This document shows positions 43,831 to 46,654 of a stretch of 64,000 bases of DNA, one piece after another (position 1 is the stretch's first letter; each line of letters starts with the position of its first letter). Made by a program: the position numbers and the translations under genes. The stretch is from the IMG/VR virus record IMGVR_UViG_3300027782_000036; one strand, given 5' to 3'. This stretch comes from a virus. The notes beneath the pieces were generated by a model. It did not search any database and had not been told where the DNA came from. It was given only the letters and a program-made list of their open reading frames with translations.

Positions 43831-44226
43831 ATGGCAGATTTATTTAAAGAGATTATTCCATCAATTTTACAGACCAAAAAAGATTATTTGGTTGATGAAC
43901 ATGATGAGAAAGCATATGCCAGAGATGCGTTCCTAGTAAACAGGGCACTATCTTATCATATGGATTGTGTGTTGTATGCAAACCAGATGAACATGAATCC
44001 ACACTTGGATGCCAAATTACAATATCAGTATTACATAAATACTATTAGATCAATGAAACGGAAATTTCAACCGTGGCAAAAGGTCAATAAAAATAGTGAT
44101 TTGAATGCTGTTAAAGAATATTTTGGTTTCAATAATGAAAAAGCCAAACAAGCCCTTCGCATTTTAAATAATGATCAAATCACTTCAATAAAAGAAAAAA
44201 CAAACAAAGGTGGAGTGACCAAATGA
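43831..44226 (+). CDS. gp62: Clamp loader small subunit gp62
   Basis: FLVNRALSYHMD, VKEYFGFNNEKAKQAL. Confidence 0.92.
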   Translation: MADLFKEIIPSILQTKKDYLVDEHDEKAYARDAFLVNRALSYHMDCVLYANQMNMNPHLDAKLQYQYYINTIRSMKRKFQPWQKVNKNSDLNAVKEYFGFNNEKAKQALRILNNDQITSIKEKTNKGGVTK

Positions 44227-44639
44227 TTCGTATCGAAGACCTGGTTGAGGTTCTATTAGAAGAAAAAGATGACTTTCTGAAAGTCAGAGAAACCTTAACT
44301 CGTATAGGACTTGCATCCAAGAAAGATAATACACTATATCAATCTTGCCATATTTTACACAAACAAGGTAAATATTACATAGTCCATTTCAAAGAACTCT
44401 TTGCTTTGGATGGTAAAGAAACTGACCTCACCGAAAACGATATTGCACGTAGAAATACCATTGTCAATTTATTGGCTGAATGGGAATTGGTAAAGATTGT
44501 TAATAAAGACCAGACAAAGGATCCAATCGTTTCTATGTCACAAGTTAAGATTATTCCATACAAAGAAAAAGATGAATGGAATTTGGTAACAAAATATAGT
44601 ATTGGTAAGAAACTTAATACAAGTAATTACGCAGACTAA
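44223..44639 (+). CDS. regA: Translational repressor RegA
   Basis: FLKVRETLTRIG, LYQSCHILHKQGKYYIVHFKELF. Confidence 0.97.
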   Translation: MIRIEDLVEVLLEEKDDFLKVRETLTRIGLASKKDNTLYQSCHILHKQGKYYIVHFKELFALDGKETDLTENDIARRNTIVNLLAEWELVKIVNKDQTKDPIVSMSQVKIIPYKEKDEWNLVTKYSIGKKLNTSNYAD

Positions 44640-44666
44640 TCTAATGATTATCTGTAGGGTGGTTGG

Positions 44667-44695
44667 TTGACTTACTGAATAAGTAAGTATATAAT
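44667..44695 (+). promoter_or_regulatory. Sigma70-type promoter of pqqA with overlapping inverted repeat
   Basis: TTGACT-17 nt-TATAAT; ACTTACT-N5-AGTAAGT at 44670-44688. Confidence 0.75.
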
Positions 44696-44815
44696 AGTAG
44701 TTATAGTAGTAAATCAAATTACTATTATGTAATATAGGCCTCAAGTTAGACCTTTGACGAAAGTCATCTCTAACGATCTGAGTTTATAAATTTTTATAAA
44801 CAAAGGAGAAATACT

Positions 44816-44887
44816 ATGTGGACAAAACCAGCAGCTACTGAAATGCGCTTTGGCTTCGAAGTTACGATGTATGTAATGAACAAGTAA
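44816..44887 (+). CDS. pqqA: PQQ precursor peptide PqqA (23 aa, MWTKPAATEMRFGFEVTMYVMNK); absent from the ORF track
   Basis: Manual translation; W-x-K-P...R-x-G-F-E-V-T-x-Y with the E-x3-Y core; AAGGAG RBS; own promoter and terminator. Confidence 0.95.
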   Translation: MWTKPAATEMRFGFEVTMYVMNK

Positions 44888-44908
44888 TTCAAAACGTATC
44901 AGAAACAC

Positions 44909-44932
44909 ACCCGCCTATATGGCGGGTTTTTT
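44909..44932 (+). terminator. Intrinsic terminator after pqqA
   Basis: ACCCGCC-tatat-GGCGGGT followed by T run. Confidence 0.88.
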
Positions 44933-44946
44933 ATTTTGGAGATATT

Positions 44947-45741
44947 ATGATCACGTTAATTGGCCACGGTTATGTGGGTAAGTATATCAAAAAAGAACTT
45001 GAAAAACAAGTTATCAAACATGAGTGGATTGACCATGAAACTCAACCATCAGCATCAACAAAAGTAATCATCAATGCAGGTGGATTTACTGGTGTTCCAA
45101 ACGTGGATGCCTGTGAATCTCAAAAAGACAAAACTATTGATGGTAATGTTCTTTTCCCATTAAGACTATCAAGATGGGCTGAATTACGTAATATATCTAT
45201 TGTTCATATCTCTAGCGGATGTGTCTATACAGGATACAAGGAAGGCGGCTGGACAGAAGAGGATGCGCCTAATTTTACGTTTGATAATGCATCATTCTAT
45301 AGTGCCACAAAAGCATTAAATCAAGAGATACTTGAACCATATCTAAAACAGTCATATCTATTGAGAATTCGTATGCCTTTTGGACCAGATAATGACGATA
45401 AGAATCTGTTGACAAAACTATCAAAATATAATAAGTTGGTAAACTTTGAGAATAGTGTATCTAACGTGGAAGAGGTGGCTGAATGTGCAGTCTGGTTTGC
45501 TGAAAACTTACCACAACCTGGTATCTACAATGCTGTCAATCCTGGTGGCGTAAAAACGCACCAAATAGCACAAATGATGGGTTTAGTGAAGTCTTACTTT
45601 ACAGATGAAGAATTCAAGGCAGCCGTTATTGCACCTAGAAGTAATTGTGTTTTAAATACTGATAAAATGCAAAAGGTATTTCAATTCAAAAATGCCACAG
45701 AATCTTTAATAGATTCTATTAATAAAATAAAACCATTATAA
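44947..45741 (+). CDS. NDP-4-keto-6-deoxyglucose reductase/epimerase (RmlD or UER1-like)
   Basis: GHGYVG, PNVDACE, SSGCVY, FYSATK, LRIRMP. Confidence 0.75.
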   Translation: MITLIGHGYVGKYIKKELEKQVIKHEWIDHETQPSASTKVIINAGGFTGVPNVDACESQKDKTIDGNVLFPLRLSRWAELRNISIVHISSGCVYTGYKEGGWTEEDAPNFTFDNASFYSATKALNQEILEPYLKQSYLLRIRMPFGPDNDDKNLLTKLSKYNKLVNFENSVSNVEEVAECAVWFAENLPQPGIYNAVNPGGVKTHQIAQMMGLVKSYFTDEEFKAAVIAPRSNCVLNTDKMQKVFQFKNATESLIDSINKIKPL

Positions 45742-46313: not shown

Positions 46314-46355
46314 TTGACATTTCTTGGTTGTTTGTGTATAATAGTATCATAAATA
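46314..46355 (+). promoter_or_regulatory. Tandem sigma70 and late promoters upstream of bS21
   Basis: TTGACA(46314)-17 nt-TATAAT(46337), then CATAAATA(46348). Confidence 0.75.
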
Positions 46356-46387
46356 AATCTTTTGACGCAACAACCAAGGAATTTAAC

Positions 46388-46654
46388 ATAGCTAAGCCAG
46401 ATAAATTTGTAAAGAAACCTAGTAGGAACGATATATCAGGATCACTGACACCCGTGCCTGATGGTCCATATGGTTTTGATAACGCATTTAGAAAGTTTAG
46501 AAAAAAGATTGATGAATCTGGTTTATTACGTGAAATTCAAGAACGTATGCATTATGAAAAGCCAACCACTGTTCGTAAACAAAAGAAAAGTGCAGCTAAG
46601 AAACGTTGGCAAAGAGAATTAGCTAAAACAAAAATACCTAAAAAGATGTATTAA
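46388..46654 (+). CDS. rpsU: Ribosomal protein bS21 homolog (start uncertain; AUA at 46388 proposed)
   Basis: AFRKFRKK...GLLREIQERMHYEKPT...RK.KK.AAKKR signature. Confidence 0.85.
   Translation: MAKPDKFVKKPSRNDISGSLTPVPDGPYGFDNAFRKFRKKIDESGLLREIQERMHYEKPTTVRKQKKSAAKKRWQRELAKTKIPKKMY

Follow-up and report, generated by a model that had tools for sequence, protein, structure and literature searches.

The window, by which we mean the whole stretch of viral DNA analysed here (64,000 nucleotides), contains a single PqqA-like open reading frame, which is equipped with expression signals of its own (Table 1). The deduced peptide covers the Pfam profile PF08042 from end to end (positions 1-19 of 19) with 42.4 bits against a cut-off of 21.1 (E 6.4e-11), and it covers TIGR02107 in the same manner (1-21 of 21) with 40.4 bits against a cut-off of 20 (E 1.8e-10). 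Since both scores are about twice the curated cut-offs, the match is not one that arises by chance. Glu15 and Tyr19, within E-V-T-M-Y, have the Glu-x3-Tyr arrangement of the cross-linked pair of PqqA, the pair from which PQQ is made (PMC10906245), and both residues are unchanged in every phage and host copy of PqqA that we collected. The N-terminal W-x-K-P part, putatively the part to which PqqD binds, is the same as in the host copies. We conclude that this reading frame almost certainly encodes a real pqqA.

The ribosome-binding site, as AAGGAG or AAGGA, is invariant in our leader alignment (A1) and is present in five of the six deposited phage copies that were inspected, the copy from Manatee Spring having AAGGAC. 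Within a 1.5-kb scan (44000-45500), the TTGACT-17-TATAAT element was the top-scoring sigma-70-like site; in a T4-like phage a promoter of this kind would be of the early type, read by the unmodified host RNA polymerase. The preliminary description, made from the letters alone, had proposed a stand-alone pqqA with ribosome-binding site, promoter and terminator, and all of these parts were recovered, as the AAGGAG element, a sigma-70 site with 11 of 12 consensus matches, a terminator hairpin and matches to both curated models. It had also noted that other pqq genes are missing from the window, in agreement with tblastn searches using PqqB, PqqC, PqqD, PqqE and XoxF from an OM43-type genome, which found neither pqqB-E nor xoxF in the 64 kb (best E 0.35). 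The linkage of pqqA to pqqBCDE is therefore not seen in the phage window. This is not disqualifying, because a host genome (G002) has pqqBCDE without an adjacent pqqA and most host copies of the same peptide type, ending in …YVMNK, are orphans.

Table 1. Coordinates of pqqA, its expression signals and its leader elements in the window, and of the corresponding features in host genomes and deposited phages.
Feature	Location	Strand	Remarks
Sigma-70-type promoter, TTGACT-17-TATAAT	44667-44695	+	11/12 consensus matches; about 120 nt upstream
5' leader, about 114 nt	44702-44815	+	transcription start inferred from the -10 box
pqqA-leader RNA motif	44736-44782	+	CUCAA, 6-bp helix, variable inner hairpin, GAUCUG
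Second hairpin, sequence-variable	44782-44801	+	abuts the Shine-Dalgarno site
Shine-Dalgarno site, AAGGAG	44803-44808	+	7 nt upstream of the pqqA ATG
pqqA coding sequence	44816-44887	+	23-residue translation MWTKPAATEMRFGFEVTMYVMNK, then stop
Intrinsic terminator	44909-44937	+	hairpin 44909-44927, 7 pairs (6 G-C), then T run TTTTTATTTT
Host leader motif, G002	C13:7006-7053		covariance model
Host leader motif, G004	C6:69878-69931		covariance model
Host leader motif, G005	C82:7075-7129		covariance model
pqqA in Melnitz (EXVC044M)	MZ577097 76134-76208	+	wrong-strand hypothetical CDS overlaps
pqqA in Venkman	MT375522 9974-10045	complement	unannotated
pqqA in P19250A	KX815270 28082-28153	complement	unannotated
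pqqA in MEP301	MW452941 3313-3384	complement	unannotated
pqqA in MEP402	OP830907 43047-43118	complement	unannotated
pqqA in Manatee Spring podophage	MW202481 2119-2190	+	wrong-strand hypothetical CDS overlaps

Scans with PHROG and Pfam profiles identified genes for the large terminase, tail sheath, portal, scaffold and major head protein in the window, together with a UvsW-like helicase and a gp46-like nuclease (PHROG E-values of 2e-203 for the portal and 6e-159 for the major head protein); the structural genes lie at 18-30 kb, and the GC content of the window is about 33%. Immediately upstream of pqqA we found gp45, gp44, gp62 and RegA, which form the T4 replication cluster, and downstream an RmlD-like reductase, Hsp20 (sHsp), bS21 and the published 'viral curli' block. 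The gene is thus enclosed by viral genes on both sides, as an auxiliary gene of a true viral genome should be. No match to deposited phages was obtained by megablast with 20 kb of the window, so that no near-identical phage has been deposited, and the nearest virus record (G001) is a 26-kb fragment, with the pqqA region outside it. By tblastn with the major capsid protein, the best cultured relatives are the OM43 myophage Melnitz (64.0%), which is the closest, and the SAR11 myophages Mosig (63.8%) and HTVC008M (62.7%). The T4-type core genes and these relatives place the phage in the Melnitz/pelagimyophage group, a placement that is loose because cyanophages are nearly as close by the same protein. 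Public runs that contain the stretch are labelled as freshwater or lake metagenomes and come from several studies, two of them with small shares only. The RmlD/epimerase-like reductase just downstream of pqqA (44947-45741; Pfam RmlD_sub_bind, 2.4e-15) is an insertion private to this phage: none of the syntenic viral contigs has a counterpart, and deposited phages gave two weak matches only.

Contigs of a lake metatranscriptome align to regA (44273-44448) with no differences and to bS21 (46314-46516) with one gap. These near-exact matches indicate that the sample contained the phage or one nearly identical to it, which may have been active there, DNA carry-over being another possible source. 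The sole metatranscriptome contig over pqqA is 90% identical, its flanks differ from those of the window, and so it belongs to another genome; the depths in this data set are contig depths and rank nothing. In DNA runs, the summed depth spikes only over the pqqA coding sequence (140 against about 5 in run X2), with loose ends at its borders, indicating that the coding sequence also occurs, with an identity of at least 90%, in many other lake genomes; the spike says nothing about copy number.

The leader is a structured RNA with host-like parts. The unit from 44700 to 44935 folds at -55.4 kcal/mol (z = -3.3 relative to shuffled sequences). Nucleotide similarity of the host type starts at about 44740 in the leader, as seen with an OM43-type locus (L144/L253) and several viral contigs, and similarity to the pqqA loci of Methylophilus and Methylotenera extends through the terminator to about 44935. 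The leader motif consists of an unpaired CUCAA (44740-44744), a helix (44745-44750 with 44769-44774) and an unpaired GAUCUG (44775-44780). In the ten distinct sequences that carry the motif, CUCAA and GA..UG are invariant and all 60 helix cells are paired, with double compensatory changes at four of the six pairs (UA/GC/CG and AU/GC). Covariation of the helix reached 0.70, a value attained by 0 of 500 shuffles, as against 0.17 or less when the partners were slid, and RNAalifold predicts the same six-base-pair helix. The loci with the motif are the window, L012, L013, L024, L026, L027, L034, L050, L062, L079 and L095.

A covariance model of the motif gave one match per genome in three OM43-type genomes, about 35-40 nt before the start of pqqA; two of these matches were not in the seed, and one lies among glyA, ribD and a phosphomutase gene and is therefore chromosomal. 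Over 873 kb, comprising the window and the viral loci, every match was located 5' of pqqA, and the window was matched once, with 48.1 bits. The model found no match in two Methylopumilus-labelled genomes, and an Rfam scan of positions 44500-45000 with E-values up to 1 returned sub-threshold chance matches only and no family for the leader motif. The motif, which was seen nowhere but immediately 5' of pqqA, in Methylophilaceae of the OM43 type and in their phages, is a candidate new cis-regulatory RNA. At the place of the second hairpin, relatives have a hairpin of different sequence (for example GATTAG/CTAATC in L027 and L034); this covariation was judged by eye and is uncounted.

The transcriptional signals differ between viral and bacterial pqqA units. 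An exact TATAAT is present 30-150 nt upstream in 44% of the viral units (24% in shuffled sequences) as against 1% of the bacterial ones. Terminators follow 42% of the viral and 82% of the bacterial units, with 0-2% in shuffles. An ATGA-N4-TCAT palindrome, for example TAATGAAAATCATTA, is found 115-140 nt upstream in 65 of 127 bacterial units, in none of the shuffles and in 3 of 116 viral units. This palindrome is probably the site of a host regulator that most of the phage copies have lost. In the window, a degenerate half-site of the palindrome is seen at about 44641-44650. We read the pattern as indicating that the phage keeps the RNA-level parts of the host unit and may have put a strong promoter, of the phage-early type, in place of the transcriptional control used by the host.

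The gene recurs in many viruses. A strict pattern for the Methylophilaceae type of pqqA was found in at least 120 IMG/VR contigs, as against only 26 in all of IMG/VR with a looser pattern of the DLR type, which we take to be typical of Pseudomonas, Acinetobacter and enterics. The 26 contigs (L346-L371; 29-54% GC) carry a stand-alone PqqA (…DLRFGFEVT.Y or …DLRLGLEVTLY) with no pqqB-E nearby, so that the precursor gene is also present in phages of other PQQ-producing hosts. Among 127 viral units we counted 87 distinct pairs of flanking protein families. Single-linkage clustering of the flanking proteins had chained 122 of the 127 loci into one component and was replaced by families of the nearest flanks. 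The order regA-pqqA-sHsp is common to about a dozen IMG/VR contigs, and pqqA is present in 2 of 73 contigs picked only by their close RegA; it is thus an accessory gene of a subset of these phages, not a core gene. Neither pqqB-E nor xoxF was found near any viral pqqA locus.

Copies found without the motif pattern, that is, those of the window, six deposited phages and two of the contigs selected by RegA, have a pN/pS of 0.155 (pS 0.62, pN 0.095), which indicates purifying selection. In the set found by the pattern, the eight unconstrained codons gave a pN/pS of 0.34, and arginine codons interchange between CGY and AGA. Viral pqqA thus combines a homolog in the host with purifying selection, as is expected of an auxiliary gene.

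Intact PqqA reading frames of 23-24 residues, preceded by a Shine-Dalgarno site and 77-96% identical to that of the window, were found in Melnitz, Venkman, P19250A, MEP301 and MEP401/402. Venkman, MEP301 and Melnitz represent three groups (PMC10580990), and MEP401/402 and P19250A are two further lineages, so that pqqA occurs in five of five published isolate lineages of OM43/LD28 phages, a statement that does not take in MEP431-434, HIM624-A and Venkman EXVC038S. The isolates belong to differing families (Kyanoviridae, Zobellviridae and, for the rest, unclassified Caudoviricetes). The position of the gene differs as well: in the window phage it follows regA, and in Melnitz it is flanked by hypothetical genes and tRNA-Leu, ahead of gp5. 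As the preliminary description had anticipated, gene callers miss pqqA: the six records inspected have either no feature or a wrong-strand hypothetical gene over the reading frame (Table 1). In the searchable literature, the pqqA of Methylophilales isolates is neither annotated nor discussed. PQQ is present at 1 nM in the OM43 media for these phages, and this could have hidden a phenotype.

Three independent lines point to the host. For the first, one genome per prokaryote species was scanned with the back-translated pattern WxKPxxxEMRFGFEVTMY, which gave at least 120 bacterial loci; their taxonomy rests on the 80 loci L121-L200, the titles of L201-L240 lying outside. Nearly all of the 80 titled loci are from Methylophilus, Methylotenera, Methylovorus, Methylobacillus, Ca. 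Methylopumilus or unnamed beta-proteobacterial MAGs, in line with the earlier suggestion that the wording TEMRFGFEVTMY is typical of Methylophilaceae. The few outliers (Pseudohongiella, a Pseudomonadales MAG, Rhodocyclaceae and high-GC Burkholderiales) have the core motif in common and differ at the free positions and in the tails. The identical 23-mer occurs in genomes of Methylophilus, Methylotenera and Ca. Methylopumilus; among the matches listed it accounts for 53 bacterial copies and 35 of 120 viral loci, and the exact peptide is recorded on 387 contigs. Two contigs (L153 and L162) of a MAG labelled Acidovorax caeni also have an exact Methylophilaceae-type pqqA; because of their GC content of 48-50%, they look like mis-binned Methylophilaceae DNA.

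The second line comes from deposited phages. Only 12 of 50,697 phage records matched the 23-mer by tblastn, and nine of these are cultured phages with Methylophilales or Methylophilaceae as the stated host (Melnitz, four times, Venkman, P19250A, MEP301, MEP401 and MEP402). The other three are a Florida spring podophage with an identical peptide and two weak matches to an Acinetobacter phage. The SAR11 phages HTVC008M and Mosig are absent from the 12, though by capsid (about 63%) they are as near to the window phage as Melnitz is. Best matches outside methylotrophs, which the preliminary description had named as evidence against its host call, were not obtained: in all nine records with a stated host, that host belongs to the Methylophilales or Methylophilaceae. 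As the third line, 400 genomes were sampled evenly from the class; 60 of them have a PqqA match (also counted as 60 of 401), and outside a Methylopumilus-type genome the identity was at most 85%, mostly 55-75%. This sample serves for identity ranks only and included the unpublished genomes G302, G045, G314 and G147, with weak matches only, on which none of our conclusions depends. Together, these lines argue for a member of the Methylophilaceae as the host, an assignment that we make at the family level and with considerable confidence. The coding sequence of the phage is 78-93% identical in nucleotides to the host copies overall and identical to none; it is 89-93% identical to the copies of OM43-type, Methylopumilus and Methylotenera genomes alike, values by which the genus is not separable. 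The bS21 of the phage was also tried as a host signal and was uninformative, its identity to Methylophilaceae (42-45%) being mid-range for the 400 class genomes (38-53%).

The candidate hosts have the pathway that the precursor would feed. PqqE scored above 500 bits in all five streamlined candidate hosts (1.0-1.6 Mb), and in G002 PqqB, PqqC, PqqD and PqqE are all above cut-off, with DAHP synthase, not pqqA, upstream of pqqB. A XoxF-type dehydrogenase was searched for in two candidate hosts and matched in both, above cut-off only in G002. Each candidate host has 2-7 copies of pqqA, scattered over several contigs, in agreement with the 3-12 copies reported for Methylophilaceae against a single pqqBCDE (PMC4109929). 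Four contigs of G003 (C46, C44, C132 and C101) stop within a pqqA copy or at one: the multiple copies of pqqA break up MAG assemblies, so that copy numbers counted in draft genomes of Methylophilaceae are minimum values. Among the matches listed, 51 of 57 bacterial copies of the …YVMNK type, which is the type of the phage, do not adjoin pqqB and are thus orphans; copies of the …YIANR type are mostly linked to the operon. In a methylotroph with five copies, a stand-alone pqqA is among the most expressed and tracks PQQ synthesis, and PqqB, PqqC and PqqD are described as 'reusable' (PMC9851590). Multiple stand-alone copies of pqqA and reusable enzymes suggest that the precursor is a dosage-sensitive, consumed input, for which the host uses extra stand-alone copies and to which the phage contributes a further copy of the gene. 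The PQQ precursor is probably limiting in these hosts.

Taken together, the observed identity of the gene, its viral context, the host family, the host pathway, purifying selection and recurrence in unrelated phages make it probable that the window carries a functional pqqA auxiliary metabolic gene of a freshwater T4-like myophage of Methylophilaceae. From these observations we infer that the gene is expressed in infected cells, that its product is processed to PQQ and that the phage gains in fitness. The phage would have obtained a small monocistronic cassette from the orphan pqqA paralogs of its host, as suggested by the host-like coding sequence, terminator and part of the structured leader, with a consensus sigma-70 promoter in place of the palindrome-bearing upstream region of the host. 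After infection, host RNA polymerase would transcribe the gene. Host PqqD would bind the 23-residue peptide and host PqqE would cross-link its Glu15 to its Tyr19, after which PqqB, PqqC and a protease of the host would turn the product into PQQ. Because one peptide is used per PQQ and the enzymes are reused, extra precursor would keep XoxF/Mxa methanol dehydrogenase loaded, and the flow of energy could be kept up after host transcription fades. That the phage gene raises or sustains the supply of PQQ during infection seems to us a reasonably likely outcome. Some points count against it. Catalysis does not consume PQQ, so that a need for more of it within one infection is unexplained, and the phage brings no methanol dehydrogenase in the 64 kb seen, nor was one found in five long pqqA-bearing viral contigs, one of which is rated complete.

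The first of these points would fit a peptide that acts as a decoy or regulator, for example titrating PqqD or PqqE or serving as a signal instead of raising PQQ as a substrate, and the structured leader could likewise suggest regulated rather than maximal expression. The phage peptide is, however, identical to host orphan copies, so that host enzymes cannot tell them apart, and in a decoy one would look for divergence at Glu15 or Tyr19, yet both are invariant in all copies seen; we regard such a role as very unlikely. Possibly, pqqA is instead a neutral passenger, a tiny host gene gained by illegitimate recombination with no benefit to the phage. It is small and self-contained, it resides in highly variable neighbourhoods, as many morons do, and the adjoining RmlD-like gene is also a private insertion. 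Yet a passenger would hardly show strong purifying selection with saturated synonymous change, nor intact reading frames with Shine-Dalgarno sites in five unrelated cultured lineages, and the spread of the gene over at least 120 viral contigs and the exchange of the host promoter for a consensus -10 box in 44% of the viral units also make this explanation quite unlikely.

It would also be conceivable that pqqA is not used as a gene, and that the phage keeps it as an att-like stretch of homology through which it could recombine with, or integrate into, the multi-copy loci of the host. The nucleotide identity of the coding sequence to many host copies (78-93%), the spikes of summed depth over it in lake metagenomes and the proximity of pqqA to recombination genes in small phages all agree with this. 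Against it, T4-like phages are lytic, the reading frame, Shine-Dalgarno site, promoter and terminator are all kept, and change is concentrated at synonymous sites, as expected of protein-coding constraint. The partial pqqA copies of G003 were considered as integration scars, a reading ruled out by their position exactly at contig ends, where they reflect assembly breaks. We find the homology patch hardly credible. A different question is whether the phage infects some PQQ user from outside the Methylophilaceae, in which the gene would serve glucose or alcohol dehydrogenases and not methylotrophy. PqqA does occur in 60 of the 401 class genomes sampled, a few MAGs outside the family have the EMRFGFEVTMY core, and 26 viral contigs have other types of PqqA. 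Nevertheless, the exact 23-mer (33 of the 80 titled loci) was seen only in records labelled Methylophilaceae or as generic beta-proteobacteria, plus the two 'Acidovorax caeni' contigs; every phage with this type of PqqA and a stated host infects Methylophilales, and the only other genomes in which the leader motif was found are of the OM43 type. A host of this other kind is therefore unlikely.

Supply of a consumed precursor to the PQQ pathway of a Methylophilaceae host thus remains the reading that we prefer, and several of its parts are apparently new, in that we did not find them in the searchable literature: pqqA in every published isolate lineage, always unannotated in the records inspected; a phage peptide that matches the orphan paralog of the host; and a covarying leader RNA only 5' of pqqA. 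The inspected genomes of every published isolate lineage thus share a systematic annotation gap. A gene of 72 bases would serve as a host marker, at the level of sequence, for the Methylophilaceae (OM43, LD28 and others), an ecologically important group with a major part in methanol oxidation in coastal seas and lakes, and it would assign hosts to more than 100 uncultured viral contigs. The leader RNA is a candidate for a new regulatory element of PQQ synthesis. Culturable pairs (Melnitz and Venkman on OM43 H5P1, P19250A on IMCC19250) make the hypothesis of a precursor top-up directly testable. It is possible, though we advance it only tentatively, that pqqA is a convergently acquired, near-universal hallmark of Methylophilaceae viruses, that precursor supply is the bottleneck and that the leader represents a new class of cis-regulatory RNA that would sense the state of PQQ or of methanol oxidation.

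A close counterpart of the phage unit is the orphan pqqA of the Methylophilaceae themselves, which encodes an identical peptide of the …YVMNK type and forms a monocistronic unit with a terminator to itself; in OM43-type genomes it also shares the leader motif. The host orphan units mostly have the ATGA-N4-TCAT palindrome and almost never a consensus TATAAT, whereas for the phage units the reverse mostly holds. Among phages, T4-like viruses of Lake Baikal with about 35% GC were predicted to infect Methylophilaceae and to encode PqqA and methanol dehydrogenase, and enhanced methanol oxidation was proposed for them (Coutinho et al. 2020; PMC7678222). The idea of a boost is thus not new. Baikal VP_266 resembles the window phage in being a freshwater T4-like phage of about 35% GC with a PQQ precursor peptide and a predicted Methylophilaceae host, and the two are possibly members of the same phage group. 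The Baikal genomes, compared here by description and not by sequence, also have methanol dehydrogenase (and, in VP_139, radical SAM genes), none of which is present in the 64-kb window. The psbA-type genes of cyanophages follow the same logic, in which the phage supplies a consumable, short-lived part of the energy machinery of its host and the host supplies the rest. The product of phage pqqA, known here from its sequence, differs from that of psbA in that it is not a protein subunit: it is a ribosomal peptide of 23 residues that would be chemically converted to the cofactor.
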